Shown here piece after piece: positions 12,057-45,291 of a stretch of 64,000 nucleotides of DNA. The first letter of the stretch is position 1. Each line of letters begins with the position of its first letter. The DNA comes from an uncultured Gemmatimonadaceae bacterium (lineage in GTDB: Bacteria; Gemmatimonadota; Gemmatimonadetes; Gemmatimonadales; GWC2-71-9): positions 1,017 to 65,016 of the forward strand of contig CAZFHS010000008.1 in assembly GCA_964518955.1 (NCBI GenBank). The letters are read 5' to 3'. The position numbers were made by a program, and so were the translations under genes. Below the pieces are notes generated by a model. That model saw nothing but the letters and a program-made list of their open reading frames with translations, was not told the origin of the DNA and ran no database searches.

Positions 12057-13991
12057 CTAGTTGTTTATCTCTCTAACGTTGTTCTGAATGAAATAGCGCA
12101 GCTGTTCCACTTGAGTCGGAGTGAGTTCCTCGAATTGGACCCCGCACCGGTTGATCGGCTTAGCAGGGGGGGCAGCTCCCGGATCGGTCACGATGTCTGA
12201 AACCTTCTTGCATTTGAGGTTGTCCACCGAACATCCATTGCCAGCCGCACAGACAGTCACTTCATCGTTGGGGCCCAAACTCAGTGCTGCATCCAAGTAT
12301 TTGAACGAAAGTCCAGACAGGCTGATATCCAAAAGTTTGCAGCGGTTTGAGGGATCGGATTTGGATATCACGAAAGCTCCGGTTTTCGCCGGGAACCGCT
12401 GGGTTCTTCTTCGTTCGGTGTCGCGCCCATCCAATACCCTGCGGATGATCTGGGCCAGTTGTTGCATGCCCAGCGGTTTCATGGCGAACTCGGCAACGCC
12501 CAGTTCTTTCGCATCTGCAGAGCAAAAGTTCTCGTTTAGGCCTGAGCAGAGAATGATTGGCAGCAACGGACGGATCTTCTTCATCTCTTCAGCCAGCTGT
12601 TTGCCCGTCAGGTTCGGCATGGTCATATCGGTGACAACCAAGTCGTACTGGTCCGGGTTTTCGCGGAATGTCTCTAATGCAGCACGGCTGTCTGTCGCGG
12701 CATCGACGCGGTAGCCGAGTTTCGAGACCATTTGTTTCACGATATCAGCAACCATCTCCTCATCGTCCACCAGGAGTATCCGCTCTGTTCCGGTGGGCAG
12801 AGTATCCTCTGCCGCCTTTGTGGCCTGTACAGCCTTTGCGTCTGCGATGGGAAGGAAGACTCGGAATTCCGTTTTCACATATGGCTCACTGGAGACCTCG
12901 ATGGCGCCGCCATGGTTCTGCACGATTCCGTGAACGACTGACAAGCCCATGCCGGTCCCCTCGCCAGCGCTCTTCGTAGTAAAGTAGGGGTCGAAAATCC
13001 GGTCTTTTATGGAAGTATCGATACCGTGGCCGGTATCACATACAGTCAAAGTCACATACGGTCCGGTCGCAATTCCATAACGCTCAGCAGCATCGGCATC
13101 AATCATCTGGCTGTCCAGGCTCACCTCGAGCACGCCGCCAGAAGGAACAATTGCGTGTGCTGCATTGGTGCAGAGATTGATCATGATTTGGTGAATCTGG
13201 GTCGAGTCACCACGCACCACGAACGATGCGTCGGGCAAGTTCTGTTTGATGACGATTTTGGTCGGTAGAGATGCACGGAGCAGCTTCAGGGATTCAGAGA
13301 TGATTGTTCGCAGCTCCAAGGGGATCCTTTCGGATTCGGTCTTCCTCGTGAAGCTGAGTAGTTGATTGATCATCTCCTTTGCGCGATTGCTGGCGGTCAG
13401 CACCTTGTCAACGTTCTCTCGAATCTCATTCTGTTCGGAAATGGCAGCTCTCACCAGTTCCGTGTTGCCGAGGATGATGCTGAGGATGTTGTTGAAATCG
13501 TGAGCAATCCCGCCAGCGAGTGTGCCTATTGCCTCCATTTTCTGCGACTGCCGAAGTTGTCTTTCTAGGCTCTTATTCTCTGCTTCGATTTGCCTACGTT
13601 CATCTTTGAGCTGTTTCTGTTTGAACGCGTTGCCAACTCTGATGAATAGTTCGTCGGGTTCGAACGGCTTTCTAACGTAGTCGCTGGCCCCCCTTCGTAT
13701 CGCTTCGATGGCAGAATCGAGTGAAGCATCACCAGTCATGATTATGAATACAGTGTGTACAACCTCCCGATCGAGTTCGTCCAAAATCTGATAACCGGTG
13801 AGACCGGGCATGCCGACGTCGAGTAACGCCACGTCATAAACGGAGGTCTTGAGCATCGCCAACGCTTCGATGGAGTTGTTGGTTGTCTCGATGTCGCAAC
13901 CCTGACCCATGAGTGTAGCCTTCACACTTTCGGTCATCCGCGGCTCATCATCAACAATCAACATCCTTGCGGCGTTGGCAATTTCACTCAT
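12057..13991 (-). CDS. Hybrid histidine kinase: REC - HisKA/HATPase - REC - PilZ
   Basis: REC1 (LLDVGMPG), H-box IAHDFNNIL, HATPase G-boxes (GTGMGLS), REC2 (VVTDMTMPNLTG). C-terminal PilZ with both c-di-GMP motifs intact (RRRTQR = RRxxxR; DISLSG = DxSxxG). Confidence 0.85.
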   Translation of the reverse strand: MSEIANAARMLIVDDEPRMTESVKATLMGQGCDIETTNNSIEALAMLKTSVYDVALLDVGMPGLTGYQILDELDREVVHTVFIIMTGDASLDSAIEAIRRGASDYVRKPFEPDELFIRVGNAFKQKQLKDERRQIEAENKSLERQLRQSQKMEAIGTLAGGIAHDFNNILSIILGNTELVRAAISEQNEIRENVDKVLTASNRAKEMINQLLSFTRKTESERIPLELRTIISESLKLLRASLPTKIVIKQNLPDASFVVRGDSTQIHQIMINLCTNAAHAIVPSGGVLEVSLDSQMIDADAAERYGIATGPYVTLTVCDTGHGIDTSIKDRIFDPYFTTKSAGEGTGMGLSVVHGIVQNHGGAIEVSSEPYVKTEFRVFLPIADAKAVQATKAAEDTLPTGTERILLVDDEEMVADIVKQMVSKLGYRVDAATDSRAALETFRENPDQYDLVVTDMTMPNLTGKQLAEEMKKIRPLLPIILCSGLNENFCSADAKELGVAEFAMKPLGMQQLAQIIRRVLDGRDTERRRTQRFPAKTGAFVISKSDPSNRCKLLDISLSGLSFKYLDAALSLGPNDEVTVCAAGNGCSVDNLKCKKVSDIVTDPGAAPPAKPINRCGVQFEELTPTQVEQLRYFIQNNVREINN

Positions 13992-14021
13992 TCGTTTGCT
14001 CCTTTGGTGTAGCTACCCGCA

Positions 14022-16187
14022 TTAGGAACTCACCACCGGCAAACAAATCGTGAACTGAGTCCCCGATTCGGTTTCCGGATCACAGGAGATGGTGCCACGT
14101 AACTGCCGTATAAGCCCATGTGCGATAGAGAGACCAAGTCCCTCGTGCTCAGCCTTGGATGTCACGAACGGCTGGAAGAGCCGAGCACGCACTGTGTCAG
14201 GTATGCCCGGTCCGTCATCGCGGATGATCAACTTTGCCTTGCCACCACCATTCTCGACCGAGTCGGCGGTGGCATGCTGACCGTCTCTGCCACCTTGCAC
14301 AAACTCGGTCTCAACATGGATGTTGCCGCCATTCGCAAGCGCTTCCGCTGAATTCTTGAGCAAGTTGATGACCGCCTGCTTCAAGATGTCTTTGTCTGTA
14401 AGAGTCATCGGAAGCGAAGAGCTAAGGCGCGAATGCACCTGTATGCCACCCTGATGAAAGAGATCATCTTTCATCAGGCGCAGGAGATCGCTCAACAGAG
14501 CATTTAAGTCGACGGGCGCCATAGACACCGAAGCTTCCTTCGACGACTCGACGAGCGTTGCTAGAATGCTCTTGATCCTGGTGATCTCTTCGTTGATGAT
14601 CCTGATCTCGTCATGCGCGATGTCCTGCTCAGCCAGCCTTCTGGCAAGTACTGCCAAATAGTTCTTGATGATCCCCAACGGATTGTTCACCTCGTGGACA
14701 GCGCGCCGTGTAAGAGTCACCAAAGACTTGACCGCGTCCACCGACGGTGCTCTTTCGAATGCACCCTCCGGTTTGCAGCGTTGTATCGCGCGTGCGGTGT
14801 ACCGGGAGAGCCGGTCTAGAAGCTGCTTCTGACCTGACAGGACTGCGCGGTCGGCGGCGTCGATGCCGAGGGTCATGGTTCCCACCGCTCGGTCGTCCAC
14901 AGCCAGCGGGAAGCAAACGACTCCTTCCTTTCCGAGGAATCGGACGAGCTGTTCGTCCATTATGGATATTTCCGCACCCTCGGACGCTACGAAGCAGTCG
15001 ACCACTCGCTGTTCGGTGAGTGCAAGAACTGGCGAGCTTTTGTCATACGACAGCGGTACAGCAAGTTCTCCGACGTAAGCGCAACAGCTCCCGTGCGCCC
15101 GCAATGTGGTGCCTTCAGGGTCGATCAGGAAGAACACCAAACGGTCGATATCGAAATGACCGTGCAACGTCTGCTCAACCAGTTGCAGTACATCATCTAT
15201 CTCCTCGGCGTGCAAAAGACCGTACGACAGCGTTGCCAGTAGACTGGTGTCGCGCACATGACCCGCCACCGCGGCATGCGCATCGGCGTGCGAAGGAGGC
15301 GCTTGTTCGGTATCCGTAAACGGAGTCGAGAGGTCTATGCCAAGTACCGCAACGGTTTCCGCAAAGGAGCCCAGCGCTGAGTCAACTGCTCGGTCCAGCT
15401 GCGGGCTGCTCAGTCCGAGCAAAGCCACCTCGGGACGGGCGAACGACTCCTGGTCGGGGGATTCAGATTTCAGAAGCTGATTGGCAACATATACGACTTT
15501 CACCAGCGGAAATGCCTGAGCAACGGCGCCTGCCGGGTGATGATGATAGTGAATTGCGTCGGCCAACAACGAATGACGTGGCCAGCGACGCACTAGTGCG
15601 GCCCCCACCGACGCATGATCATCGCCTACCAGGTCCTCTCCCTTGGCCTTCTTACCTTTTGCACCTGCACTACCCGACAACTGCAGCTTGTATTTGGTGG
15701 GGTAGGACGTAAGCAGCAGTAGCTTGCCAATATCATGCAGAAGCCCGGCTAGAAACGCACTTTCGGGTTGGTGAAGTCCGTGTTCCTTGCCCAGCTGCTC
15801 CGCCAGAAACCCGCATTTGACCGAATGCGCCCAGAAATCGGTGAGGTCGCCGGGGGAACAGAATGAATACGTGTCGAATACATCGAGCGTTGACGACCAT
15901 CTGACCAAATGAGCAAGAGTATCGCGGCCGATCAGCTCTGCCGCGCTGGCCACATCCGGTACTGCTGCGCCAGACTTATCCTGCGCCAGACGCATGACGT
16001 TGATGCTGAGCGCTGGATCGAGCTTGAGAACGCCCGCGAGTTCGGGAACGGCGATGGCGGGATCGTCGAGCAGCTCGAGCAGCTTGGCTGTAATGTGTGG
16101 AAGACTTGGAAGACTGTTGGTGCCTGCCAGTTGAGAGACCTGGGCGTTGTGCGGTTTTGCGAGCCGGTTTCTGTTAGTTCTGGCCAT
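14022..16187 (-). CDS. HDOD - GAF-like - histidine kinase
   Basis: HDOD signatures ([34 protein letters not shown]), H-box HEVNNPLGI, HATPase (DDGPGIP, GLGLSIA). Start uncertain: ATG at 16187 or TTG at 16211. Confidence 0.8.
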   Translation of the reverse strand: MARTNRNRLAKPHNAQVSQLAGTNSLPSLPHITAKLLELLDDPAIAVPELAGVLKLDPALSINVMRLAQDKSGAAVPDVASAAELIGRDTLAHLVRWSSTLDVFDTYSFCSPGDLTDFWAHSVKCGFLAEQLGKEHGLHQPESAFLAGLLHDIGKLLLLTSYPTKYKLQLSGSAGAKGKKAKGEDLVGDDHASVGAALVRRWPRHSLLADAIHYHHHPAGAVAQAFPLVKVVYVANQLLKSESPDQESFARPEVALLGLSSPQLDRAVDSALGSFAETVAVLGIDLSTPFTDTEQAPPSHADAHAAVAGHVRDTSLLATLSYGLLHAEEIDDVLQLVEQTLHGHFDIDRLVFFLIDPEGTTLRAHGSCCAYVGELAVPLSYDKSSPVLALTEQRVVDCFVASEGAEISIMDEQLVRFLGKEGVVCFPLAVDDRAVGTMTLGIDAADRAVLSGQKQLLDRLSRYTARAIQRCKPEGAFERAPSVDAVKSLVTLTRRAVHEVNNPLGIIKNYLAVLARRLAEQDIAHDEIRIINEEITRIKSILATLVESSKEASVSMAPVDLNALLSDLLRLMKDDLFHQGGIQVHSRLSSSLPMTLTDKDILKQAVINLLKNSAEALANGGNIHVETEFVQGGRDGQHATADSVENGGGKAKLIIRDDGPGIPDTVRARLFQPFVTSKAEHEGLGLSIAHGLIRQLRGTISCDPETESGTQFTICLPVVSS

Positions 16188-16223
16188 GATTGCGTTCAGA
16201 GTTGAAAACAATACACCAATTCA

Positions 16224-16238
16224 GCTGTGTTCGTGCCA
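16224..16238 (-). promoter_or_regulatory. Possible sigma54 -24/-12 box upstream of the HDOD-GAF-kinase gene
   Basis: Reverse strand reads TGGCACGAACACAGC. The -24 half (TGGCACG) is perfect and the GC sits at the correct spacing, but the -12 half is CAGC rather than TTGC. It lies very close to the start codon. Confidence 0.3.
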
Positions 16239-16519
16239 TCTCAGCATGAGATATGAGATACTTAGTTCGCAACTGCCAGTTGGACCTGAACTCGGCCTCC
16301 TTGTTGGCACGTGCCGCTCCGGCTCACATGCCCGGCTACCGCTAATTTGTGGACACACCCCTCCGACTACAAGTGCTTGTTTGGGACACAAGGGTACGTT
16401 TTTGGGACATTCACCTGCAGTTGGCTAGCGTCCTCGCGTCCCTCACACCCTGAAAGCGGCTGTGTAAGAGATAACCCGTGGCAGGAAGATCTTCAAGAAC
16501 GTTCGGGGTGTATGGGCTA

Positions 16520-16906
16520 CTACCGGAATTCTCCTATTAGTCTTGCCACGACGGTGTCGTGAGCAGCGCGTGCCGCGATGAGCAGTGAGGCGGAACGCGA
16601 GCTGTCACCCTCCGCTCCGGAGACTTCGAGCTGACGTAGGAGCTCCGCAAGCTGTGTTGCACCCATGCTCGCGGCAGCCGACTTGTATGCGTGCGCTGAA
16701 GATCTGACTTCTTCGGGCGCGCTGGCCTCGACGGCCGATTGAATGGCACCCATCCGAATAGGGGCATCTTCGAGAAATGCCTCTACCAGTTCGTCAATGA
16801 TGTCCTCGAGTTCAGCCTCAGCCATCGCCCGTCGGAAGTCCGCGACCTCAAAGGATGCCATCTCGTTACTGACGTCGTTCGTGACTGTCCCGGCTGTATC
16901 TGTCAT
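16520..16906 (-). CDS. Hpt (histidine phosphotransfer) domain protein
   Basis: HxxKS motif (SSAHAYKSAAASMGATQLAELLRQLE) in a roughly 120-aa helical protein. It lies 13 nt downstream of the preceding response regulator gene. Confidence 0.8.
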   Translation of the reverse strand: MTDTAGTVTNDVSNEMASFEVADFRRAMAEAELEDIIDELVEAFLEDAPIRMGAIQSAVEASAPEEVRSSAHAYKSAAASMGATQLAELLRQLEVSGAEGDSSRSASLLIAARAAHDTVVARLIGEFR

Positions 16907-16919
16907 GACGTGATTCCCT

Positions 16920-17492
16920 CTAGGTTTCTAAGGTATCGAACTGCCTCAGCTGCGGCTCGATTCGTGACTGGTAACACTGGGGGCAGATGCCGTGCGTAAA
17001 TGTTGATTCGGTGCGGCTGGATATGTAGGTCTCTACGTCTTGCCAACGGTCGTTTGCGTCGCGGATCTTTCGGCAGTACGAACAGATAGGAAGCAAAGAC
17101 TCTAGTTCCTTAACCTCCGAATACAATCCGAGTATTCGCTCTGCAACACGTACTCTGGCGGCCAGTTCATCTCTATCGAGCGGTTTTCGGATGAAGTCGT
17201 CCGCACCTGCATCCATCGCACGTAGATAACACCGCTTGCCACCTAACACGGTGAGCATGATGATGTACGTATATGCCGGTCGATCTTCCGCCCGCACGGC
17301 TCTGCATAACTCCAGGCCGTCGAGCTGAGGCATCATCCAATCCACAATCAGCAATCGGGGGTGATCTTCTGAGTAGCGTTCCCAGGCAACTGCTCCATTG
17401 TCAGTTTCAACCACCTCATGTCCGAAAGATTCGAGTGTGCTTTTCAACAGCAGCCTCGCAACTCGGTCGTCTTCGGCAATGAGGATCTTCAT
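16920..17492 (-). CDS. Response regulator: REC + C-terminal 4-Cys tail (CxxC...CxxC)
   Basis: REC with DD, acceptor D (LIVDWMMP) and K (IRKP). Tail is LPICSYCRKIRDANDRWQDVETYISSRTESTFTHGICPQCY. Start set to the ATG at 17492, preceded by AGGGGGGA. Confidence 0.85.
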   Translation of the reverse strand: MKILIAEDDRVARLLLKSTLESFGHEVVETDNGAVAWERYSEDHPRLLIVDWMMPQLDGLELCRAVRAEDRPAYTYIIMLTVLGGKRCYLRAMDAGADDFIRKPLDRDELAARVRVAERILGLYSEVKELESLLPICSYCRKIRDANDRWQDVETYISSRTESTFTHGICPQCYQSRIEPQLRQFDTLET

Positions 17493-17590
17493 TACATCCC
17501 CCCTTAGCATCGATGCTCACCTACTCCGCAAACAAAGCAGATCAGGTTGAACCAAACCCTACGTATCCCGCAAATACCCGTTTCGTCTGA

Positions 17591-17618
17591 TTATCGGCGC
17601 GTCGCCGCAGATACCTTA
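17591..17618 (-). promoter_or_regulatory. Sigma28 (FliA)-type promoter for the REC(4-Cys)/Hpt pair
   Basis: Reverse strand reads TAAG-N16-GCCGATAA (perfect -10). The -35 overlaps the TAA stop of the upstream hybrid kinase. About 100 nt upstream of the ATG at 17492. Confidence 0.55.
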
Positions 17619-19838
17619 GCTGTCCACAGGATCAGCGACTTCGGTGTGGATCCACTTCTCGAGGACTTCGACCAGAACCTGACGTTTGATTGGTTTTATC
17701 ACGTGGTCGTCCATGCCGGCTGCCAGGCACTTTTCTCTGTTGCCGTTCGTGATGTTCGCGGTCAAAGCAACGATCGGTGTACGGCATGCGGCCCCTTCTA
17801 ACTCTCGGATGGCCCGGGTAGCCTGGTATCCATCCATGGTCGGCATTTCGCAGTCCATCAGGACAATTTCGTAACAACCGTTTTGCGCCGATCGGACCGC
17901 TTCACTGCCATCGCAGGCGATATCCACGACATATCCGAGTTTCTCGAGCGTTCGTACCATCACCTTTTGATTGACCGGATTGTCCTCGGCCAGCAGTACT
18001 TTGCCCCGATACGATATTGAGGCCGCTGTGCCGGTATTCTCGCTCTCGTCGCTGTTGGCGTTGTCCGATCGCCGCTGCTTTGAGCCCAACGCAGCCACCA
18101 GACAACGCGACAGACGATCACGTCGAATCGGTTTAGGCAGACACGCAGCGAAGTCTGCATTAGTCGCGGCCATCGATTCACCACTTGCACCGATGGGTGC
18201 CATCAATACCAGACGTGCGTCCCTCAACGACGGATCCGCCAGGATCTTGCGACCGAATTCTTCGCCATTCGTCTGCTGTAGTGAGTTGTCCACCATCACA
18301 ACATCATAGGGGGCGGCTTTCTTGATGGCGCTGAGCAGCATATCGATCGCTACATCCGGCGCGTCGGCAACGTCCGCGGCCATATTCCACCCACAAAGAA
18401 GTGCCTGTAGCGATTGGCCACTCGCGGGATGATCCTCCACGATGAGTACCCGTTTCTTTGCGAATTCTCCCGTCTGCAAAGCGGGTATGGCCGCGGGTCC
18501 CTTGTGCCGCCCCATCCTGACGGTGAACCAGAAAGTGCTACCTTCGCCCAGCTGGCTCCTTACTCCAATCTCTCCAGCCATTGCCGCAACCAGGCGCTGT
18601 GAGATCACCAATCCGAGTCCGGTACCCCCGTATTTTCTGGTAGTAGAACTGTCGGCCTGCACGAAAGCCTGGAAGATTCTTTCTTGCGCATCCAAGCTCA
18701 TACCCACACCCGTGTCGCTCACCTCGCCCCGTATCGTCACAGATTCGGAATCGCTGTCTACCACATCGAACCGTGCGACTATCTCTCCGCTTTCCGTGAA
18801 CTTCACCGCGTTACCCATGAGATTCAAAACGATTTGCCGCAAGCGCCCAGGATCACCTACCAGTGTGTCCGGTATCGCCGGTGCAACACTGCTCACCAAT
18901 TCCAGCTGCTTTCCGATCGCTCGCGCAGCGATGAGGTCCGCCGTTTCTTCGACGGTCGTGCGCAGATCGAACGGCACTTCCTCGAGTTCGAATGTGCCGG
19001 CTTCGATCTTGGAGAAGTCGAGGATGTCATTAATGATGTCCAACAGCGACTCGCCAGATACGCGAATAGTTTCAACGAAGTCCCGCTGTTCTTCACTCAG
19101 GCCCGTTTCCCTGAGCAACTCGGTCATTCCGATCACGCCGTTCATCGGAGTGCGAATCTCGTGGCTCATCGTGGCGAGAAACTCACTCTTGGCGCGAGTA
19201 GCTGCCTGCGCTTCTTCATTCGAGCGTTCTAATTCGAGCGTTCGTTTGGCTACCATTCCCTCCAAGTTTTTCGCGTAGCCACTCAACGAACCATAGAGGG
19301 ACAGGTTCTCGATCGCATTTGCGCAGTCAGCAAGTACGATCGAGGTGAATTTCTGCGAGGCTTCGAGTACGTAGTTACGATCCTTTTGCACGACGCCCAT
19401 GAACATCCCGACCACCCTCGACCGGGTAGCCAAAACGTGCAACAGCACCCTACCATCCATCATCTTTCCTGGAACTATCACCGGCCGATTTTGTCTCACA
19501 GCCCACGCGAACGTTCCGGATTCGATGTGCCTCTCCAACTCATTGATAAGTCGCGGTGAGAGTTCCGTGGGATCGAGTTCGATCGGAGAAAAGTCGAAAG
19601 TATCTGCATCGGCAATCCAAAAGCCCACCGCTTCGAAGTCGACTATCGATCTGAGTGTCGACGCAGCAGAGGCACAGATCGCGGCTGGGTCTGCATGTTC
19701 TGTGAGGTCTCGACGTGACCGGAACAACGCGACCACGGAATCGAGACACTCCAGTAGCCATTTGTTCATCCGGGTGGCGCTAAACTCAGCAGACACCTCA
19801 GTTTCGGGTACCGGACGCGAGGCCGGGTTCGCTGTCAT
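17616..19838 (-). CDS. Hybrid histidine kinase: GAF-like - HisKA/HATPase - REC - REC
   Basis: H-box [14 protein letters not shown], HATPase ([15 protein letters not shown]). Two receiver domains (VVMVDNSL; [13 protein letters not shown]). ATGA overlap with the upstream HDOD gene. Confidence 0.85.
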
Positions 19839-20689
19839 TCGGATTCCTCGAGAATCGTACGAACCGCTGCCGCGTATTGTTGGTCGATGTCAGTCAGTAT
19901 GCCGGTGAGAACGTCTTCGGATAGACCTAGTCGCTCCCAAGCGAACCCGGAGAGAGGTGGCACCCACCGCTCACCGCTACTTCCCATCAGCATTGAGTGC
20001 GCCAGTATGTCTGCCAGATGAATGACTGCCACTTCGACTTGAAATCGTGTGGCACGTGCGGGCCTGTGATGATTTGACACGGGTTCTTGCAATGAAACCG
20101 GGAGATTCCAATTAGACAGCAGAGCCTCACCCACTGCTGCATGGTCGTATCCCATGACCACTTCCTCGGCCTCGTGCAGCATCATCTGTTCATCTCGCGC
20201 GTGCTCGATCGCGGTGCGCGCACCGTCTGGGTCGGACATGAATACCAGTAGCTTCCCGATATCGTGCAACAATCCCGCGACGAAGTGCCGCTCCACATTG
20301 GGCGCTCGCAACTCGGTAGCAAGTGACCTTGCGCATACCCCGCACCCAATGCTGTGCTGCCAAAAACTGGACATGTCTACCAGTTCTTGAGGTACATCCT
20401 TGAACATGTCCACAACCGATGTGGCGAGAGCTAGGTCGTGTATCTGCTGAGTGCCGACAACCGTCAACCCTTGCCTCACAGATTCGATCGTGGAGGGGAA
20501 ACCATACATGGCGCTGTTCACGAGACGCAGCAGTCTGGCCGTGAGGCCGATGTCTTCACTAATGACAGCTCCAACGTCATCTGCTGAGCTGTACGGGTCT
20601 TCCATCACCTCTACCAATCTCGTGTAGATCGCCGGTAGGGACGCGATATTCGTAGACTTACGAACGAGGTCATCGATGTTAGGCGCCAT
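19835..20689 (-). CDS. HDOD domain protein
   Basis: Full-length HDOD pattern ([56 protein letters not shown]). Confidence 0.85.
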
Positions 20690-21017
20690 TGTTGCCTCTG
20701 CCGGCTATGCGGCGCGCGCATTCGTCTAGCAAGAGCGCCACCACTGGATGATCTATGTCGCAGTGCTTGAACAGTTCTCGTGCGGCAGCGGCATGCTGTG
20801 GCTCGACCACGAGGTCCTGAGGCGTGTCCTGGGATTCCTCTGCGGGACCGTTACCACCCACGATTTCAATATTCTGCACCCCCCAGATCTTGAACAACCG
20901 CAACTCCTTCTCGGCGAGTACTTTGCCCGCCTTCGCAAGCAGTTGGCCGTTTCTGTCAACGGCATCTGAGGCTAGCTGCATACCAGGATGCGCCTGCTCT
21001 AACCGAATCACACCCAT
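20679..21017 (-). CDS. Small protein carrying a GM-x-LA-x-D module (function unknown)
   Basis: Start set to the ATG at 21017 with GAGGAG 5 nt upstream; the longer ORF reaches 21071. The N-terminal ~50 aa share an ungapped pattern with the C-terminus of the MotB-coupled protein (23952-24119). Confidence 0.55.
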   Translation of the reverse strand: MGVIRLEQAHPGMQLASDAVDRNGQLLAKAGKVLAEKELRLFKIWGVQNIEIVGGNGPAEESQDTPQDLVVEPQHAAAARELFKHCDIDHPVVALLLDECARRIAGRGNNGA

Positions 21018-21121
21018 GACGGCTCCTCGGTTTCGAGGGTTGAGCCAAGTTGACCGCGTCGCCCAGCCCATTCATTGCGACAGCCCCTCACGGCGGACGT
21101 CGCGTTCCTTGTCAACTCAAA

Positions 21122-21181: not shown

Positions 21182-21209
21182 TCAAGCTTCTCAGCGTTCG
21201 GTCCGATAC
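21182..21209 (+). promoter_or_regulatory. Sigma28-type promoter for motAB
   Basis: TCAA-N16-TCCGATAC, about 55 nt upstream of the motA ATG. GGAGGA RBS at 21245-21250. Confidence 0.5.
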
Positions 21210-21263: not shown

Positions 21264-22124
21264 ATGCTCGCCATCATCGGCGTGTTGGTCGTCATTGTGT
21301 CAGTACTCGGCGGGTTCAGCCTGGCGGGAGGGCACCTCGCAGCGCTATTCCACGTATCGGAGTTCGTCGTAATCGGTGGTACTGCGCTGGGAACGATTAT
21401 GATATCGACGCCGAGGTCCATTCTGAAGGAGCTGTTCGCCAAACTCACGGGGGTGATCAAGCAGACTCCCTTCTCGAAGGACCTCTACCTCGAAGCTTTG
21501 AAGATGATATTCGAGTTGTTCCAAATTGCTCGGCGCGACGGGCTCGTGGCAATCGAATCGCATATCGAGCGCCCAGCAGAGAGTGAGGTATTCAAGAAGT
21601 ACTCCGCAGTGTCGTCACGTCATCATGCAATCACATTTCTGTGTGATTCCCTCCGCCTCGTCCTCGTCGGGAGTGTGCCACCCCACGATTTGGAAGCATT
21701 GATGGATGCGGACATTGATGTTCATCACGAACAGGAAGCGCGGCCTGTGAACGTGCTGCAAAAGGTCGGCGACGCCCTCCCGGGAATTGGTATCGTTGCG
21801 GCCGTGTTGGGCATCGTCGTCACGATGGGCGCGATCGCCGGGCCCGTAGAACATATCGGCGAGAAGGTGGGCGCTGCTCTGACCGGCACATTCCTCGGTG
21901 TGCTGCTTGCTTATGGCTTCGCTACTCCCCTGTCTAGTAGCATGGAACACCAGAACGCCGAGGAAGCGCGTTTTCATCATTTCATCAAAGCCAGCGTAGT
22001 GGCATTCGCAAAGGGTTTCGCTCCAATAGTCGCAACGGAATTTGCCCGCAGAGCGATCTTTGCCGAGGTGCGTCCATCGTTCGAGGAAATGGAAACCGCC
22101 TGCAAGAGCACGAGGGGCAAGTAG
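21264..22124 (+). CDS. motA: Flagellar stator protein MotA (E. coli MotA-type)
   Basis: 286 aa, collinear with MotA (MLxxxGxLVV start, LPGIGIVAAVLGIV, GTFLGVLLAYGF, ERPSFEEME). Confidence 0.9.
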   Translation: MLAIIGVLVVIVSVLGGFSLAGGHLAALFHVSEFVVIGGTALGTIMISTPRSILKELFAKLTGVIKQTPFSKDLYLEALKMIFELFQIARRDGLVAIESHIERPAESEVFKKYSAVSSRHHAITFLCDSLRLVLVGSVPPHDLEALMDADIDVHHEQEARPVNVLQKVGDALPGIGIVAAVLGIVVTMGAIAGPVEHIGEKVGAALTGTFLGVLLAYGFATPLSSSMEHQNAEEARFHHFIKASVVAFAKGFAPIVATEFARRAIFAEVRPSFEEMETACKSTRGK

Positions 22125-22128
22125 CGAC

Positions 22129-22953
22129 ATGAACAAGGACCGTGAAGCCCCGCTACGAATCATCGTGCGCAAGAAGCGCAGCGATCATGGTGGGCATCAT
22201 GGTGGTGCCTGGAAAGTCGCCTTCGCCGACTTCATGACCGCAATGTTTGCACTGTTCCTCGTGCTCTGGCTCGTCAACCAGAGTTCCGAAGTACGGTCGT
22301 CGATAGCCGGTTACTTCGCCAATCCAATGGGATTCCCGGGTGAGGCTGGAAGCTCACTGTTGCCCGCGGACGGAACGGTGGCTTCAGATATCCGCCCGGT
22401 GCTGCTGGAAACATTCAGCCTGCGTCGGCTTCAACTGCGCGAGCTCGAGGCGAGGTTGCGCACCCGAATGGACGACCTCCCCGGATTGGAGTCAGTATCG
22501 GCAAACATCGAAATGGAGATGGTTGATGAGGGATTGAGGATTCAACTGCTCGAGGATTCGTCCGGCGTATTCTTCGAGACTGGAAGCAGTGATCCGAAGA
22601 CAGAAGGGCTGCAGGTGCTGCAAATCCTCGGGACAGAGCTGGCCCTGCTTCCAAACACCGTTGTCATTGAAGGTCACACAGACTCCCGCCAGTATGCTAT
22701 GGGTAACCGGTATACCAACTGGGAGCTGAGCGCCGACCGTGCTAACGCCGCTCGCCGTATTCTCACCGCAAACGGATTGGATGACTCGAAGATTGGCCAA
22801 ATTCGTGGTCTTGCAGACCGGGAGCTGCGGGACCCTGATAACCCCTTGTCCCCCGGCAACCGACGGGTCACCATAACAATTCAAGAGATCGGGCAAGGCC
22901 AACCTCCCGACTCCAGTGCTACCTCCATTCGAGTTCGTCGGGGCGCGCCATGA
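22129..22953 (+). CDS. motB: Flagellar stator protein MotB (OmpA-like C-terminus)
   Basis: HGGAWKVAFADFMTAMFALFLVLW carries the conserved TM Asp. OmpA-like peptidoglycan-binding domain (NWELSADRANAARR). Start at the ATG at 22129, 4 nt after the motA stop. Confidence 0.9.
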   Translation: MNKDREAPLRIIVRKKRSDHGGHHGGAWKVAFADFMTAMFALFLVLWLVNQSSEVRSSIAGYFANPMGFPGEAGSSLLPADGTVASDIRPVLLETFSLRRLQLRELEARLRTRMDDLPGLESVSANIEMEMVDEGLRIQLLEDSSGVFFETGSSDPKTEGLQVLQILGTELALLPNTVVIEGHTDSRQYAMGNRYTNWELSADRANAARRILTANGLDDSKIGQIRGLADRELRDPDNPLSPGNRRVTITIQEIGQGQPPDSSATSIRVRRGAP

Positions 22954-24122
22954 CACCAGCTGTAACGGTACTGTTGGCGTGCGACGATCCCTTCGCAACG
23001 CGAGGACTCTCGGAGGAGGTGCGTCAGATCCAGGATATGGATCTAACGGTGACAATCGACGGAGATGGTGTCCTTGACCTGGTGTTGGAGCTGTCCCCCG
23101 ATCTAATCATATGCGGAGCGACAGTGGGCGACGCCGACGGCCTCGAGATTTGCCGTTCCATTAAATCCGACGGCCGTATCGCGCATGCGCACTTAGTGTT
23201 CCTCGCTCCTCATGGTGATCGGGACGCAAAAGACGATGCGCTGCAGGCGGGCATTGACGCGTTCTTGACCGTGCCGCTGGACCCCGAAGACGTACGCGCG
23301 ATGCTCAAGCAGGCTGAACGGTTGGCATCCCAACGTGACCAGATTTTACAGAGCGATGTCCGACTCAAGACCGCGGGCCGCGACACCGAGCAGCTGGTGA
23401 CTTTTCTGGTCAGCCTCATTGAGGCCCAAATGTCCGGTGCCGCCAGCCGCGGCGAGACCCTGGCGAACCTCGCAGGCAAGATCGCCGACAGGTTCAAGAT
23501 ACCGTCTCATCTACTCCAGGACCTCGATACCGCCGCACGCCTACAAGAGATCGGAAAGATCGTTGACCCGGCGAATGCGCCGCACGTGGCGCTCGAACAT
23601 AGACCTGCATGCACCGGCCCCTACTACACAGTCGTATCGGCTGCCGTGCTGGCTCAGTTGGACCTGCTTTCTGGAGCGGCTGAGGTAGTCGGCGCAATGT
23701 GCGAGAATTGGGACGGCACAGGGCTGCCTGACAGACTCCGCAAAGGACAGATCCCGCTTCGATCTAGGATTCTCAGAGTCCTCGCCGATTTCCTCGACGA
23801 AATGCCCGACCCCGACCTGCCTAAGGCGGCAAACGTCCTTTCACAGCTTAAGGCCCAAGGCGGCACTCTATACGACCCACTTGTGATAGTGCACCTTCGC
23901 TCGGTGCTCGGAGATGAGGACGGTTCAGATATAGCTGACGGCAACACCCAGCTTACTGTGGCGGACCTGAAGGAGGGTATGGTGCTCGCCGAAGACATGT
24001 TCACGAGCTCAGGGGTGATGCTCCTGGCACGCGGAGCGGTGCTGACAGATGCTACGCTGGAAGTCATCAAGTACCGCAATCAGGTGGATCCTGTCGTTTC
24101 TGGAGTGTCGGTGTGTTGCTAA
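22950..24122 (+). CDS. Pseudo-receiver + degenerate HD-GYP-like domain + GM-x-LA-x-D module; translationally coupled to motB
   Basis: ATGA overlap with motB. REC fold with Gly at the acceptor position (DLIICGATVGDADG), Ala for T/S (LAPHG) and Val for Lys (LTVPLD). HD-GYP-like block has LQEIGK in place of LHDIGK and MCENWDGTGLP in place of HHERWDGSGYP. Confidence 0.75.
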   Translation: MTPAVTVLLACDDPFATRGLSEEVRQIQDMDLTVTIDGDGVLDLVLELSPDLIICGATVGDADGLEICRSIKSDGRIAHAHLVFLAPHGDRDAKDDALQAGIDAFLTVPLDPEDVRAMLKQAERLASQRDQILQSDVRLKTAGRDTEQLVTFLVSLIEAQMSGAASRGETLANLAGKIADRFKIPSHLLQDLDTAARLQEIGKIVDPANAPHVALEHRPACTGPYYTVVSAAVLAQLDLLSGAAEVVGAMCENWDGTGLPDRLRKGQIPLRSRILRVLADFLDEMPDPDLPKAANVLSQLKAQGGTLYDPLVIVHLRSVLGDEDGSDIADGNTQLTVADLKEGMVLAEDMFTSSGVMLLARGAVLTDATLEVIKYRNQVDPVVSGVSVCC

Positions 24123-24215: not shown

Positions 24216-24983
24216 GTGCCGGCAATGTTGGAACCCGATAAACTCACGTCATATCTGTCTGGGTTGAGCAACGACCAGATCCGAGACATGCTGGCCAAAT
24301 TGGATCGCACCAACCAAGGGCACAGCATGTTTAGAGGAGTTGCACACGACCTCAGCAATGCCTCACAGGCGCTTTCCATGGGAGCGCCCGCGGTTCAGGC
24401 CGGAGATATCGAAGCCGAGAAATGGTTGTCGATGACGCATTGGGTTGACGAGAAGATGAACCGCGCCGCTGCAGTAGCGCGTGACTTTGGAACTCTCGGA
24501 GCCGACGAAGAACATCCTGTCAGCGTTCATGAGGTCGTCAGCACGGTGTTTGATTGGCAGCAACTTCAACGAGCACAACCGGTCGGCAACATCCAATGTC
24601 AGATGGCGCCACACATGCGCCCAGTTCGAGCTTCAGATCGACGACTCCGCCAGATCCTTCTCGCGTTGATTGCCAATTCCAAGGAATCGATTGAGGATCA
24701 GCAGGAAGCAAAGATACTGCTGGAGGCAAATCCAACGGACGGCGGAGTGACAATAGCAGTAGAAGACTCCGGCTCCGGCATCGATCCCGACATTAGAGCC
24801 AAGGTTTTCGACCCATTTTTCACCACAAAGGAGCCTGAGCTACATGTGGGCCTCGGTTTGACGGTGGCTCACGCATCAGCAGAGAGTTGGGGTGGAAGTC
24901 TCACTATCGATGAGCCGAAGGGCGGCGGCACCAGGGCGGAGCTGCTCCTGCCCTACTGGTCCAATCAACCGTCCACTGCGTAG
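24216..24983 (+). CDS. Minimal soluble histidine kinase (DHp + HATPase only)
   Basis: H-box FRGVAHDLSNASQAL; N/G1/F/G2 boxes (LIANSKES, DSGSGID, FDPFFTTK, GLGLTVA). The start could instead be the ATG at 24225. Confidence 0.7.
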   Translation: MPAMLEPDKLTSYLSGLSNDQIRDMLAKLDRTNQGHSMFRGVAHDLSNASQALSMGAPAVQAGDIEAEKWLSMTHWVDEKMNRAAAVARDFGTLGADEEHPVSVHEVVSTVFDWQQLQRAQPVGNIQCQMAPHMRPVRASDRRLRQILLALIANSKESIEDQQEAKILLEANPTDGGVTIAVEDSGSGIDPDIRAKVFDPFFTTKEPELHVGLGLTVAHASAESWGGSLTIDEPKGGGTRAELLLPYWSNQPSTA

Positions 24984-24994
24984 AGTCCAATACC

Positions 24995-26359
24995 TCAGAC
25001 CATCCTCAACAACTCTGTCACCATTTCGTCGGCAATTGTTACGAGTCGAGACGCTGCGGCGAACGCCTGCTGCTGCGCTATCAGCATAATCATCTCTTCG
25101 TCGACGTTCACACCGTTCGAGCTGGCACGCATCATCTGAGCTCGATCGACCATGGTTTCGTGTACTGCCGCAGTCTGTTGCGCATTTAGAACCGTAGACC
25201 CGAAGGATGTGACCGTACTCGTATAGAAATCACCGAACTCACTGCCGCCGAGCGCCGCAATGGACGTCGATCGCAATGCTGCGATCTGTAGCGCAACATC
25301 TCCGTCTCCAGCGGCGGTCGTACTACCGGCGGCGATTTCATCGACGGAATTCTCAACCGCTGCAGACAAGCTTATGGTGTGAGCGGTCACACCTGCTGGG
25401 TCGAAGAAGTCCACGTTGGTTGCACCGCTTGCAGTGAACCCACCGTTGTGAATGGCATTCACTTCCGTCACCAGTGCTTCTGCGAACTCGTCTAGGCTAC
25501 TGCGCAGCCCCTGAAGCTCAACGTTCAATACCTCTGTCATAGCAAGCAGGCTACCAGATCTAGGATCTACATCGCCGCCGCCGACAACCCCTACGCCGGT
25601 TCCACCTCCTGCCAAAACGCGCACTTCCAGAGTTTGCGTCATGCCTCCATCCACCAAAAGAGTGTCTCCTGCGGCGACTCCTACGGTGCCATCGTCGCGC
25701 TGAAGCACCCTCACCCCCATCGACTCTGAAAGCTGATCGATCAACACGTCGCGCCGATCCTCCAGATCGGGCGCCGACTGCGTAGAACCGCCCGACGCAA
25801 GGATCAACTGGTTCAGCCTGGCTATCTCGGAGGTAACGCTGTTCACGTCTTCAACAGTGGCGTTCATCTCGGCGAATGCATTGCGCTCCGTTTCTACGAT
25901 GTTCTCATCCAAGAGGTGCAGCTGATCTTCCAGCCGGCGCGCGTGTTGCTGCACTAACCCACGATGCACACTGCTCGAAGGATCGTTCGCAAGCTCACTG
26001 AAGGCATTGAACATCCCGTCTAACGCTGCACCGATGCCGTACTCTGACGGTTCGTTGATGGCAGCTTCGACCTGGCCAAGGAAATAGCCAAGTGTTTGCG
26101 AGTGGCCCAGCAAACCAGATTCTCTACGCAGGCTGGAGTCGTGCAGCCAATCACGAATTCGGGTTATGCCCGTATCTGACACACCACGCCCCATTGGCCC
26201 CAACAGCGATGCCGACGGATCGGCAGCCGCAAGGTCCAGACGCTGCCGAGAGTACCCTGGCGTCATCGCATTTGCCACGTTATGCCCGGTCACGTCGAGA
26301 GCCCTCTGATGCGTAATGAGGGCGCTACGCGCGATGCCGAGAAGACTGATCAGTGTCAT
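24995..26359 (-). CDS. flgK: Flagellar hook-associated protein 1 FlgK
   Basis: N-terminus LLGIARSALITHQRALDVTGHNVANAMTPGYSRQ; C-terminus GVNVDEEMIMLIAQQQAFAAASRL. Both are typical of FlgK. Confidence 0.9.
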   Translation of the reverse strand: MTLISLLGIARSALITHQRALDVTGHNVANAMTPGYSRQRLDLAAADPSASLLGPMGRGVSDTGITRIRDWLHDSSLRRESGLLGHSQTLGYFLGQVEAAINEPSEYGIGAALDGMFNAFSELANDPSSSVHRGLVQQHARRLEDQLHLLDENIVETERNAFAEMNATVEDVNSVTSEIARLNQLILASGGSTQSAPDLEDRRDVLIDQLSESMGVRVLQRDDGTVGVAAGDTLLVDGGMTQTLEVRVLAGGGTGVGVVGGGDVDPRSGSLLAMTEVLNVELQGLRSSLDEFAEALVTEVNAIHNGGFTASGATNVDFFDPAGVTAHTISLSAAVENSVDEIAAGSTTAAGDGDVALQIAALRSTSIAALGGSEFGDFYTSTVTSFGSTVLNAQQTAAVHETMVDRAQMMRASSNGVNVDEEMIMLIAQQQAFAAASRLVTIADEMVTELLRMV

Positions 26360-38379: not shown

Positions 38380-39495
38380 TTAAATCCTGAATCCCGCCAC
38401 AACGTTCTGCACGACGAGTGTCCAACCGTCCGCGAGAACGAAAAGCAGCAATTTGAATGGCAGAGAAACCATGATCGGTGGCAGCATGAACATGCCCATA
38501 CTCATCAACACAGATGCAACGATGAGATCGACCACGATGAACGGGACGTATATCAAAAACCCAATCTGAAACGCGGTTCTCAGTTCGCTTACCACGAACG
38601 CCGAGACAACGACCAGCGTCGAAAGCTCTTCTACCGACTCGACCGGCTCAGCATTACTGAGGTCCGCCAGAGCGGAGAGATCCTGCTCTCGGGTGTTTGC
38701 TAGCATGAAACTGCGAAATGGAACGATGCCGAGTTTGAAGGCTTCGGCCTGCGTGATCTCGCCTTCGAAGTACGGAGTAACCGCGACTCGGTTGGCTTCA
38801 TCGAGCACCGGCGACATGACCACCGCAGTCAACAACACGGCAATCGCAACGAGCAGCTGCCCCGGTGGTGTGGTTTGGGTACCCAGGGCAGACCTGAGAA
38901 AGTGCAGAGTTACCAGTATTCGTGTGAAGCTGGTCATCAGCAGCAAAAGCGCCGGGAGCAGAGTCAGAGCACCCAGGAAGACGACTATGCCGACAGCGCC
39001 TGTCAGTTGGAGGTCGCTCTCACCGTTACTCAGATCGAGGGAGATCGTTGGGGGTGCCGGCGGATCGACCCGGGGTCCACCCTGCACAGTGGCACTGGGC
39101 GGTGTTGGCGCCGTCTGCGCCGTGGTTTGGATCGGCATCAACGCTAGAAGAACGGCGAGTCCAACCCAACCCAGACGAGGCAAGCGCCACCGGCCTACCG
39201 GTCGGTCGATTGTCTCCAGCTCGGTGCTCTCGAGCGCTGCGTCCAAGCCGTCGCCAGAAAGCTCAGTCAGCAGCTTCGTGCCACCTTCACTCACCGAAAC
39301 GAGCAACACCCGATCTCCCACTCGTAACAACGCCACGCCGTGACGCGGTCCCATCGATATTCGCTGCAAGACCTGAAGCGGAACGCCATGCCCGTTCCAC
39401 GGGCGGGCACCCTGATACTGCTTCAACAGCTTCAAGCCCAGTAGCAGCACGCCCAAGGTGACGGCGAGGGCGGCGAGCAAGCCCAAGATTCCCAC
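38380..39495 (-). CDS. fliP: FliO-FliP fusion protein (single ORF)
   Basis: aa 1-~100 are FliO-like: one TM plus LQVLQRISMGPRHGVALLRVGDRVLLVSVSEGG. A second signal-like segment (WVGLAVLLALMPIQTTAQT) and complete FliP follow (LLLLMTSFTRILVTLHFLRSALG ... MVSLPFKLLLFVLADGW). No stop codon between them. GTG start preceded by AAGGAG. Confidence 0.85.
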   Translation of the reverse strand: MGILGLLAALAVTLGVLLLGLKLLKQYQGARPWNGHGVPLQVLQRISMGPRHGVALLRVGDRVLLVSVSEGGTKLLTELSGDGLDAALESTELETIDRPVGRWRLPRLGWVGLAVLLALMPIQTTAQTAPTPPSATVQGGPRVDPPAPPTISLDLSNGESDLQLTGAVGIVVFLGALTLLPALLLLMTSFTRILVTLHFLRSALGTQTTPPGQLLVAIAVLLTAVVMSPVLDEANRVAVTPYFEGEITQAEAFKLGIVPFRSFMLANTREQDLSALADLSNAEPVESVEELSTLVVVSAFVVSELRTAFQIGFLIYVPFIVVDLIVASVLMSMGMFMLPPIMVSLPFKLLLFVLADGWTLVVQNVVAGFRI

Positions 39496-43830: not shown

Positions 43831-45291
43831 CTACTGCACCGTTATCTGTGGGTCGCGAAAACCCTGCTTGTCCAACACACGTTGGAGTTCCGAAATCCCT
43901 GAGCCGATGCGCTCCGCTATCGCTGGATCACCGGACACGATCGTCGCCCGAACCGAATCACCTCTCAGCGCGACTCTGAGCCTGCCCTCCACCCCACCGT
44001 CGTCGGTGAACTTGAGTGTCACTCTATCTTCCGGTTTTGGCTGAAATACGGCATCCTCGACCGAGGTTTTTTGCACCGCAGGTCCGACCTGGCTTTCCAC
44101 CGGACGGTGACCCACCGACCGTTCAGCTCCACCAGGATTGCGCGCGCCAACCACCGGTGACGTCAGATCCGCCTGTGTTGCGGAACCAGAGCCCATGCTG
44201 CTGTTCGGTTGACGCTTTCTGCCCGTCGCAGCTTCTGCATCGCCTTGTGCCAAGACTCGTTGTTCAACTTTGTCTATTCGTGTCGTCCTTGGACCAGACT
44301 CAGTGTCCTCGATGCTTGAATCTGCCGGTCTCAACCCCTGCCGATCCCGAAGACCTTCCCGGTCACGCATGCCGGCACGCGTATGCTCATACATGCGACT
44401 CTGTGCGGGCTGATGTTCGCTGTTTGGAGGCTGTTGCGGCACAGCTTTGCCTGCTGTCGATAGCGATTCTGCCGAAGTAGTTTCCAGCGCTGGTTTGGGA
44501 TTTGACTCTCCGCCTACCGACGTTTTCGGTGGGGTGGAGGTCTCTACTCGATGCGCGTTCTCCATATTGGGTTTCGACAAGGAGACTGCTGAGTACCCAT
44601 TTGGCCCGGCTACTACTTGCGGACGCGCAGGTATGCTGGAGTGTTTGCTGCCGCCAACACGCGATTCGGTCGAGGTCTGAGTTCGTACGTTGGAGATCTC
44701 GGCCGACTCGATCGTTATCTCAGGCAGCGGAGGCCGAGCCCCTGCGCCTTCACTTGCCGATTTCGCCTGCGTCGCAGTTTCGGGCACACTCGGAATTCCA
44801 CCCCGCGGCGTTTGCGGCGCAGCTTCCGTGTGAGCCCTCGACCGTTCAACAGGAGCGATTCCGTCCTTAACATTGGCAGCGATTGCAGGGGTGGCCGGGG
44901 TATCAGGCTGAACCTTTTGGTGCTCCGTTTGATGCGGCACCTGAGCCGGCGTTCCCGCTGTCGCTTTTGTGTTGGGTTCTAGATCGGTCTGCGCCGTGCT
45001 GACCGTTGTGCCAGGAGAACTACCCGCCGTTCGGATGGGGCTGCTACCCGTTTCGTCCAGCACGACTTTCAGCTGATTTCCGGCGTTTTCTGCGTCAACG
45101 TTCGGCTGAGTAGTTGAGCCGGGTGCGGCATCGTCAGTCTGCAATTGAGTTACCGGAGTCGACTGCGGCGCGATCATAGCCAGCAGCATAGAAAGTCCAA
45201 AGGCCTCCGCGTGTGCCCGGTCTTGTGGATTCGACTGACCGACTTTCGAGCATATTCCGGCAGCCGGCGTCGATCCTTGAATGAATGTCAT
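43831..45291 (-). CDS. fliK: Flagellar hook-length control protein FliK
   Basis: Pro/Thr/Ala-rich extended N-terminal part. C-terminal hook-length-control-like domain (VTLKFTDDGGVEGRLRVALRGDSVRATIV). Sits between fliJ and flgD. Confidence 0.7.
   Translation of the reverse strand: MTFIQGSTPAAGICSKVGQSNPQDRAHAEAFGLSMLLAMIAPQSTPVTQLQTDDAAPGSTTQPNVDAENAGNQLKVVLDETGSSPIRTAGSSPGTTVSTAQTDLEPNTKATAGTPAQVPHQTEHQKVQPDTPATPAIAANVKDGIAPVERSRAHTEAAPQTPRGGIPSVPETATQAKSASEGAGARPPLPEITIESAEISNVRTQTSTESRVGGSKHSSIPARPQVVAGPNGYSAVSLSKPNMENAHRVETSTPPKTSVGGESNPKPALETTSAESLSTAGKAVPQQPPNSEHQPAQSRMYEHTRAGMRDREGLRDRQGLRPADSSIEDTESGPRTTRIDKVEQRVLAQGDAEAATGRKRQPNSSMGSGSATQADLTSPVVGARNPGGAERSVGHRPVESQVGPAVQKTSVEDAVFQPKPEDRVTLKFTDDGGVEGRLRVALRGDSVRATIVSGDPAIAERIGSGISELQRVLDKQGFRDPQITVQ

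Follow-up and report, generated by a model that had tools for sequence, protein, structure and literature searches.

In a 64,000-nucleotide (nt) stretch of DNA from an uncultured Gemmatimonadaceae bacterium (contig CAZFHS010000008.1), hereafter the window, the stator gene motB is followed by gene X, the open reading frame (ORF) at 22950-24122, whose product combines a receiver-fold (REC) domain, an HD-GYP-like domain and a small C-terminal beta domain. X is a real and conserved gene that points to an undescribed motor-associated adaptor and not to the cyclic di-GMP (c-di-GMP) phosphodiesterase named in databases. Its architecture places it in the RpfG (REC-HD-GYP) family, as a predicted catalytically inactive protein that carries one more domain at its C-terminus. 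The reading that we favour, at slightly less than an even chance, is that X is a cytoplasmic, non-enzymatic adaptor made together with MotA and MotB of stator set 1, which would act by contact with the motor.

Gene X in the stator operon

The genes and signals of the locus are as follows.

21182-21208, plus strand: FliA (sigma-28)-type promoter motif TCAAG-N16-CCGATA, 56 nt 5' of the motA ATG (pattern search)
21264-22124, plus strand: motA, stator set 1, 286 amino acids (aa) (Pfam MotA_N, E 6e-25; MotA_ExbB, E 8e-12)
22129-22953, plus strand: motB, stator set 1, 274 aa, ATG at 22129 (Pfam MotB_plug, E 2e-16; OmpA, E 4e-11)
22950-24122, plus strand: gene X, 390 aa, predicted pseudo-receiver, dead HD-GYP-like domain and C-terminal beta domain (ORF listing, Pfam, alignments and an AlphaFold2 (AF2) model)
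24216 or 24225 to 24983, plus strand: small sensor-less histidine kinase gene, about 252-255 aa (HATPase_c, E 5e-19)
24995-26359, minus strand: flgK, convergent, closing the main flagellar cluster (24995-50854, minus strand) (Pfam annotation of orthologues, tblastn)

Positions 22950-22953 read ATGA (context gcgcc-ATGA-cacc), and the last two bases of the X ATG are also the first two of the motB stop codon TGA at 22951-22953; this start is backed by the N-termini of homologues. The ORF listing of motB begins at an upstream TTG (22042), and the ATG at 22129 gives a length matching that of the orthologues. The first-pass annotation, made from the letters alone, had placed the start of X inside the motB stop, had taken X for a third gene of the motAB unit and had named co-occurrence with motAB across genomes as a check, all of which the sequence and the related loci bear out. 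The 4-nt overlap between the X start and the motB stop (ATGA or GTGA) recurs in 67/76 loci, and a tblastn comparison using the neighbours of X in the window placed motA-motB directly 5' of X in 72 of 73 informative species loci from two phyla. By the same method, flgK lies convergently 3' at the same position in most orthologous loci, its identity being given by the FlgK_D1 and Flg_bbr_C domains of orthologues in related loci (precomputed Pfam annotation).

The FliA-type motif occurs four times in the window against 0.12 matches expected, once just 5' of a flagellin gene, and stands 5' of motA in 51 of 61 orthologous loci over a background of 0.014 per 265 nt; we infer that it works as the promoter of the motA operon. 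Inside the motA-motB-X operon, our scan found no sigma-70 consensus promoter and no convincing terminator, terminator-like matches numbering 6 compared with 3.6 +/- 1.8 in shuffled sequences. Together, the coupling to motB and the FliA-type motif 5' of motA make it most likely that X belongs to the late flagellar genes and is expressed along with the stator, presumably on the same transcript.

The family was collected in three ways. A single-sequence search returned 44 close relatives of X, a search with a profile of the HD-GYP-like and C-terminal domains returned at least 340 clusters at E <= 1e-5, the best 120 of which are all full-length relatives with E < 1e-89, and a scan of one genome per species gave 118 relatives, of which 80 were kept and 75 non-redundant orthologues aligned. 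The 80 are almost all from metagenome-assembled genomes of Gemmatimonadota and Candidatus Eisenbacteria. Between X and its relative L007, nonsynonymous divergence (dN) is 0.18 and is low in all three domains, including the pseudo-receiver, with 0.065 for the C-terminal domain and 74% amino-acid identity between the two receivers; synonymous divergence (dS) is saturated in both pairs compared, and hence only dN and amino-acid identity are reported. These values indicate that X is under purifying selection in the window's lineage.

Domains of X and their state

Pfam finds a Response_reg match at aa 7-119 (E 2e-11) followed by an HD_5 match at aa 154-310 (E 2e-19), and the AF2 model of the whole protein has a mean predicted local distance difference test (pLDDT) score of 84.7. 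The parts of X referred to below are these.

22968-23306, plus strand: receiver-fold domain, aa 7-119, predicted to be non-phosphorylatable (Pfam, PleD alignment, orthologue columns, AF2 strand ends)
23115-23117, 23205-23207 and 23271-23273, plus strand: receiver key codons for G56, A86 and V108, with D12/D13 retained
23409-23879, plus strand: HD-GYP-like domain, aa 154-310, lacking most metal ligands and nucleotide-binding motifs (Pfam HD_5, alignments, Foldseek)
23448-23450, 23544-23549 and 23697-23729, plus strand: HD-GYP key codons for R167, Q199-E200 and MCENWDGTGLP
23940-24113, plus strand: C-terminal small beta domain, aa 331-388, with the motif L..GMVLAeDl.T.sGvkLLa.Ga.L....le.I.rrh..dPi (conservation, AF2)

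The N-terminal domain scores 44.3 bits against the Response_reg model (PF00072; cut-off 30.2), is predicted with pLDDT above 90 as a complete (beta-alpha)5 receiver fold of five strand-helix units, and is matched by many REC structures in Foldseek at a root-mean-square deviation of about 2 A. The fold and the acidic pair after strand 1 are thus present, and the acceptor Asp, the Thr/Ser and the Lys are absent. In a HMMER alignment to the first receiver of PleD, G56 falls on the acceptor D53, A86 on T83, V108 on K105, and D12/D13 on D9/D10; in the AF2 model strands 3, 4 and 5 have G56, A86 and V108, respectively, at their C-terminal ends; and the same three columns of the 75-orthologue alignment hold D in 43, S/T in 45 and K in 40 sequences. 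The three lines agree on what had been proposed at first pass, a receiver that keeps its Asp pair and has Gly, Ala and Val at the three key positions, and the X receiver is predicted not to be phosphorylatable at the canonical site in the window's lineage.

This state is specific to lineages and not to the family, judging from the alignment: 39/75 orthologues have a canonical receiver (D, S/T and K), the remainder being degenerate. The first-pass description of X as doubly degenerate therefore fits X itself, where both domains appear dead, and as a description of the family it does not extend beyond such lineages. On a neighbour-joining tree, Fitch parsimony counts at least five changes of receiver state, and since regain of all three residues is implausible, the phospho-site appears to have been lost repeatedly and independently, on five or more occasions. 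In the window's clade these residues are GAV, GIV, SAG and AVK, a variety that looks like drift after loss.

The kinase gene 3' of X carries a related record. The gene starts either at GTG 24216 or at the in-frame ATG 24225, which lies 11 nt after GGAG, and its product has an intact H-box (RGVAHDLSN) and intact N, G1 and G2 boxes that are conserved in 43 orthologues, in keeping with the minimal soluble kinase that the first reading had placed here. Orthologous kinases are about 230-270 aa long, with the H-box RG.AHDL(R/S)N..Q preceded by some 35 residues. The window's clade has AHDLSN in its H-box and the canonical-receiver lineages have AHDLR(G/N). Such a kinase is found 3' of X at 32/36 loci with a canonical receiver versus 12/28 where the receiver is degenerate (odds ratio 10.7, Fisher p = 1e-4). 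Kinase retention thus tracks receiver integrity, which points to an ancestral pair in which the kinase signals to X, and the ancestor of the family very probably combined a normal, phosphorylatable receiver with its co-operonic kinase.

Loss of three receiver residues that differ among close relatives is what relaxed constraint would produce, and it could be taken to mean that X is a functionless remnant decaying in the window's lineage, its operon position merely inherited. We regard this as very improbable: the ORF is intact and its start conserved, the low dN given above extends to the pseudo-receiver, the receiver fold is predicted complete and with high confidence, and degenerate-receiver lineages persist across a whole phylum-level clade.

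The second domain has the helical HD-GYP fold, with Foldseek matches to DvhD (9rbz), PA4781 (4r8z) and PmGH (4mcw) at probability 1.0, DvhD being the best HD-GYP structural match of the X model. Its positions were set by alignments to DvhD, PA4781, V-cGAP3 and two canonical HD-GYP proteins. The equivalent of the first metal-binding His is R167, that of the HD pair Q199-E200, that of the third His Y226 and that of the HH pair M250-C251; substitutions thus affect five of the six aligned metal-ligand positions, D280 alone being kept. The GYP motif reads G258-L259-P260, with L259 at the Tyr position. Besides D280, X retains E252, W254, D255, G256, G258, P260 and the IPLRSRI helix. The first-pass annotation had reported the metal ligands as lost, and no alignment restores an HD or HH pair; of the scaffold that it listed as kept, WDG-x-G-x-P stands, while the spacer in RI-x-x-x-AD is four residues long here (RILRVLAD), one more than in PA4781.

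The same substitutions run through the orthologues. R167 occupies the first-His position in 75/75, E200 replaces the Asp of the HD pair in 71/75 (mostly as HE, here as QE), the HH pair is replaced by the hydrophobic [IVM][FY], and H, M or L stands in place of the Tyr of GYP, within a loop that is otherwise invariant as WDGTGxP. By these positions the dead HD-GYP state is family-wide, and the domain is most likely an HD-GYP derivative unable to bind the catalytic metals. The best 120 profile matches bear generic names only, and public names of family members (P0002, P0011, P0030 and others) include "RpfG family c-di-GMP phosphodiesterase" and "HD domain-containing phosphohydrolase", probably a systematic mislabelling that affects more than 300 clusters. 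Those names and the HD_5 match are what speaks for an active RpfG-type c-di-GMP phosphodiesterase, an activity that we reject and hold to be next to impossible, with the metal ligands and the substrate-binding motifs lost and with DvhD and HnoD, which carry comparable substitutions, being inactive (PMC13090378; 10.1101/2021.11.05.467447).

Loss of catalysis does not by itself abolish nucleotide binding, as DvhD's HD-GYP domain, in which HD and HH are replaced by SQ and MN, binds c-di-GMP metal-free with a dissociation constant of about 99 nM (2026 structure; PMC13090378). With DvhD as its best structural match, with the Lys or Arg after HD-x-G kept (K203; K or R in 68/75 orthologues) and with motor brakes being typically c-di-GMP effectors (PMC13432727), X could be pictured as a metal-independent cyclic-dinucleotide receptor that serves as a c-di-GMP-dependent stator brake in the role of a PilZ protein. 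The residues known to serve such binding are missing. HD-GYP domains bind c-di-GMP through their metals, KPG, RxY[K/R] and the GYP tyrosine (Galperin and Chou, 10.1101/2021.11.05.467447), and among the 75 orthologues KPG occurs in 2 and RxY[K/R] in 1. DvhD itself contacts c-di-GMP through Y523, L577, K582, Y621, M646, R650, Y652 and E668 (PMC13090378); when these eight residues were mapped by HMMER alignment, 0/8 were conserved across the orthologues, Y523 falling on an invariant Gly of the family and R650 and Y652 in a variable loop that is shortened. Where KPG would lie, the loop is variable as well and weakly modelled, residues 208-222 of X having pLDDT below 50. Because metals, KPG, RxY[K/R], the GYP Tyr and the DvhD contacts are all gone family-wide, sensing of c-di-GMP or other nucleotides by X is unlikely, and the sensor option that the first-pass annotation had entertained is disfavoured; a receptor of the DvhD type in particular seems rather improbable.

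The C-terminal domain, absent from that earlier description, holds the densest conservation in X. The receiver has 3 positions conserved at 90% or more and the HD-GYP-like domain about 35, clustered in ENWDGTGxP and GQIPLRSRILR; the final 65 or so residues have 19. Modelled alone by AF2, the domain is small and beta-rich with one helix (pLDDT 89.7). It has no Pfam match even at E <= 10 and no significant counterpart among PDB folds in Foldseek, where barrel-like insertions of RNA polymerase and MoeA/gephyrin, considered for its identity and rejected, were matched only weakly (E >= 0.19). A profile of the domain recovers 1256 representatives among 1.84 billion proteins; among the best 150 matches listed, most are X-like and some are small stand-alone proteins, and at least one, P0158, carries tandem N-terminal copies of the beta domain before a true HD-GYP domain.

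A possible further copy lies in a gene pair divergent from motA.

20679-21071, minus strand: small ORF, 130 aa, overlapping the HDOD gene at 19835-20689 (HDOD, E 1.5e-64); the divergent pair spans 19835-21071

The N-terminus of this small ORF aligns with the X C-terminal domain in hhalign (E 8e-5, probability 61%), BLASTP and HMMER giving no match, and may carry the same beta domain. If the match holds, the combination of a small beta domain with an HD-type domain may recur at the locus in both fused and split form, and the divergent pair is possibly related to X in function. An HDOD gene lies divergently 5' of motA in 27/39 loci with a canonical receiver.

Known adaptors and a possible role at the motor

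Non-catalytic REC-HD-GYP adaptors are already known, NosR, HnoD and PA2572 being the closest to X in kind, and what is new in X is its fixed coupling to a stator operon. Inactive proteins of this type that act through protein contacts include HnoD and RpfG (10.1101/2021.11.05.467447), NosR (PMC12570481) and PA2572 (PMC3411652). The first-pass annotation had known of no described stator accessory with this architecture; the four proteins show that REC-HD-GYP itself is not new, and for the stator-linked version the statement stands, as our literature search found neither an HD-GYP or response-regulator gene downstream of motB nor a stator-linked protein of X architecture.

NosR of Burkholderia pseudomallei (BPSS1648; NF053512) is the best curated match of X, which scores 139.9 bits against the NosR model (E 1e-40), with X residues 129-378 on positions 160-412 of 422 and the aligned part reaching into the C-terminal region of X; the cut-off being 400 bits, membership in the NosR family was rejected. 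Like X, NosR joins a REC domain to a degenerate HD-GYP domain ("HG-GTP") and shares its operon with a soluble histidine kinase without a recognised sensor domain, and protein contact with other c-di-GMP enzymes is its proposed mode of action (PMC12570481). It differs from X in keeping its acceptor Asp, which is phosphorylated by NosK, in having NosP, a FIST/haem nitric oxide sensor, in its operon and not motAB, and in belonging to Proteobacteria.

HnoD of Shewanella oneidensis (SO_2541), RpfG and ECA3548 resemble X in being REC-HD-GYP proteins with HD/HHE substituted (SE and QLE in HnoD) that do not hydrolyse c-di-GMP and regulate by protein-protein contact (10.1101/2021.11.05.467447). HnoD belongs to an H-NOX phosphorelay, inhibits an EAL phosphodiesterase and has no link to stator genes, whereas X additionally lacks KPG and RxY[K/R], has the conserved C-terminal beta domain and, in the window's lineage, no acceptor Asp. 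PA2572 of Pseudomonas aeruginosa (YN-GYP), likened to X by description only, also combines REC with a degenerate HD-GYP domain, affects motility and virulence, and contacts through its REC domain PA2573, which resembles a methyl-accepting chemotaxis protein; unlike X, it adjoins that chemoreceptor-like gene and not a stator operon, and its mutant alters the expression of 49 genes (PMC3411652). DvhD of Desulfovibrio vulgaris (PDB 9rbz, 9rc0) shares with X an HD-GYP fold that lacks metal ligands and serves in signalling without catalysis, and differs as a membrane dCache-PAS-HD-GYP receptor that binds c-di-GMP through contacts not conserved in X. The N-terminal HD-GYP copy of V-cGAP3 is reportedly non-catalytic and regulatory. 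This degenerate domain (PDB 5z7c) is the best PDB sequence match to the GYP region of X (DEHWNGQGRP versus CENWDGTGLP), and is, unlike X, fused to an active HD-GYP domain in a cyclic GMP-AMP phosphodiesterase with no motility context.

The functional parallel that we propose as a working model for X is with the PilZ brakes YcgR and FlgZ, cytoplasmic accessories that touch MotA and/or FliG and alter motor output (PMC12943098; PMC13432727). The tetrameric, c-di-GMP-blind PilZ protein of Campylobacter offers a precedent for a second-messenger domain that lost ligand binding and became a stator-stabilising part (summarised in PMC12943098; PMC13432727), and a 2026 review of motility suppression names only PilZ brakes and the EpsE clutch (PMC13432727). 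X is unlike these brakes in its unrelated fold, with no Pfam match at E <= 1 to PilZN or to the PilZ domain that carries RxxxR and D/NxSxxG motifs, in its receiver or pseudo-receiver input, and in that its binding to the motor is a proposal. MotI/DgrA are further PilZ-type motor brakes.

In the mechanism that we propose for X as an adaptor, ENWDGTGxP, GQIPLRSRILR and the C-terminal beta domain would together make up the conserved surface, with which X would bind a part of the motor, MotA's cytoplasmic face or its FliG interface being the most plausible, and this binding would tune the engagement or torque of stator set 1. In lineages with a canonical receiver, phosphorylation of X by the kinase would switch the motor contact. 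In the window's lineage the switch would have been lost, leaving X constitutive or controlled by kinase binding and not by phosphotransfer. The core made up of the HD-GYP scaffold and the C-terminal domain is conserved whether or not the receiver is phosphorylatable.

The window also holds a second, divergent stator pair, which indicates an organism with two stator sets and X on one only.

61058-61834, plus strand: motA2 of the second stator pair, 24% identical to set 1
61831-62700, plus strand: motB2 of the second stator pair (MotB_plug and OmpA), 23% identical to set 1; the pair spans 61058-62700

The two overlap by 4 nt as well, and motB2 has no X-like gene behind it. With this pair lacking an X in the same window, a role specific to one stator set is plausible. 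A bolder version of our reading, to which we give appreciably less credence than to the adaptor itself, is that X founds a new class of stator regulator, a nucleotide-blind REC/HD-GYP protein, unlike regulators made from PilZ or a glycosyltransferase, on the cytoplasmic face of one of two stator sets; ancestrally it would have set engagement or torque under the kinase, and in lineages such as the window's it would now be a fixed accessory.

The family parallels also admit a different flow of information, in which the stator is the sensor: the kinase would read its activity or load, much as NosK does with NosP, and phosphorylate X, and X would modulate a true diguanylate cyclase or phosphodiesterase, linking surface or load sensing to c-di-GMP. 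The GYP loop, invariant in the X family, is said to mediate contacts between RpfG and GGDEF proteins. The kinase, with its few residues before the H-box, is suited to such a relay, and a REC-GGDEF gene at 57145-58200 lies in the same flagellar neighbourhood. In NosR, the curated family nearest to X, phosphorylation comes from a soluble kinase without a sensor domain (PMC12570481), and the inhibition of an EAL phosphodiesterase by HnoD shows the kind of output envisaged (10.1101/2021.11.05.467447). Against the relay, nearly half of the lineages lack the phospho-site, often with the kinase also gone, yet X stays tightly coupled to motB; no diguanylate cyclase or phosphodiesterase gene occurs in the conserved module around X; and the NosR score falls far under its cut-off. 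Repeated loss of phospho-site and kinase with motB coupling kept fits a phospho-independent core role better than a relay, which we consider unlikely, though the strongest of the competing explanations.

Several observations weigh against the motor-adaptor reading. Synteny and translational coupling indicate co-expression and not contact. A suggestive sign in favour of the reading is that, given FlgK, the evolutionary distances of X correlate with those of MotA (partial r 0.58) and MotB (0.61) nearly as MotA and MotB do with each other (0.63), and X with FlgK given MotA only at 0.09, but these mirror-tree values come without a significance test and can be inflated by the shared history of linked genes. 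One relative with a canonical receiver, P0032 (L003/L061), lies away from motAB between HAD hydrolase and DUF4097 genes, and may be a paralogue that left the operon. The kinase keeps its H-box and ATP-binding motifs beside an X without acceptor Asp, for which the model offers no explanation. Finally, X may have a ligand site of a novel type despite the loss of the known nucleotide-binding residues.

Wider neighbourhood and significance

Signalling genes flank both stator pairs in the window.

12057-21071, minus strand: dense signalling cluster divergent from motA (small ORF, HDOD protein, kinases, receivers)
17616-19838, minus strand: hybrid kinase of this cluster
16920-17510, minus strand: stand-alone receiver of this cluster
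14022-16211, minus strand: HDOD-kinase fusion of this cluster
12057-13991, minus strand: REC-kinase hybrid with a second REC match
57145-60833, minus strand: operon-like run adjoining motA2B2 and flagellins, with a PAS histidine kinase (59568-60833), a REC-HDOD gene (58372-59571) and a REC-GGDEF gene (57145-58200)
54830-54855, plus strand: further FliA-type motif (TCAAG-N15/16-CCGATA), just 5' of a flagellin-like gene (54928-55725)
62970-62996, minus strand: further FliA-type motif (TCAAG-N15/16-CCGATA), near a small unannotated ORF (62761-63012)

The REC-GGDEF gene may encode a diguanylate cyclase with which an adaptor of the HD-GYP type could pair. The fourth match to the FliA-type motif falls within a gene, at 6084-6107, and may have arisen by chance. 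In the main flagellar cluster, a 371-aa ORF (38380-39495, minus strand) contains FliO at aa 35-92 and FliP at aa 174-364 and is apparently a FliO-FliP fusion. Between fliJ and flgD, two ORFs of 486 and 234 aa in 43831-45995 (minus strand) have no Pfam match at E <= 1e-5 and are, by position, candidates for a FliK-like hook-length protein and a further partner.

Like GGDEF and EAL domains, HD-GYP domains have been recycled as non-catalytic modules, and X appears to stand one step past DvhD, with the nucleotide site gone too. Relabelling the more than 300 clusters bears on how many c-di-GMP turnover enzymes are counted in Gemmatimonadota and Eisenbacteria. The family also supplies natural controls, in lineages with a canonical receiver and kinase as compared with those that have a dead receiver with or without the kinase. 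Phosphorylation control of the flagellar motor acts via CheY at the switch complex. A receiver protein co-translated with MotB in two phyla would be a new route, with signalling aimed at the stator, and, if X does represent a new class of stator regulator, a two-component pathway would end at the stator and not at the switch complex or a promoter.

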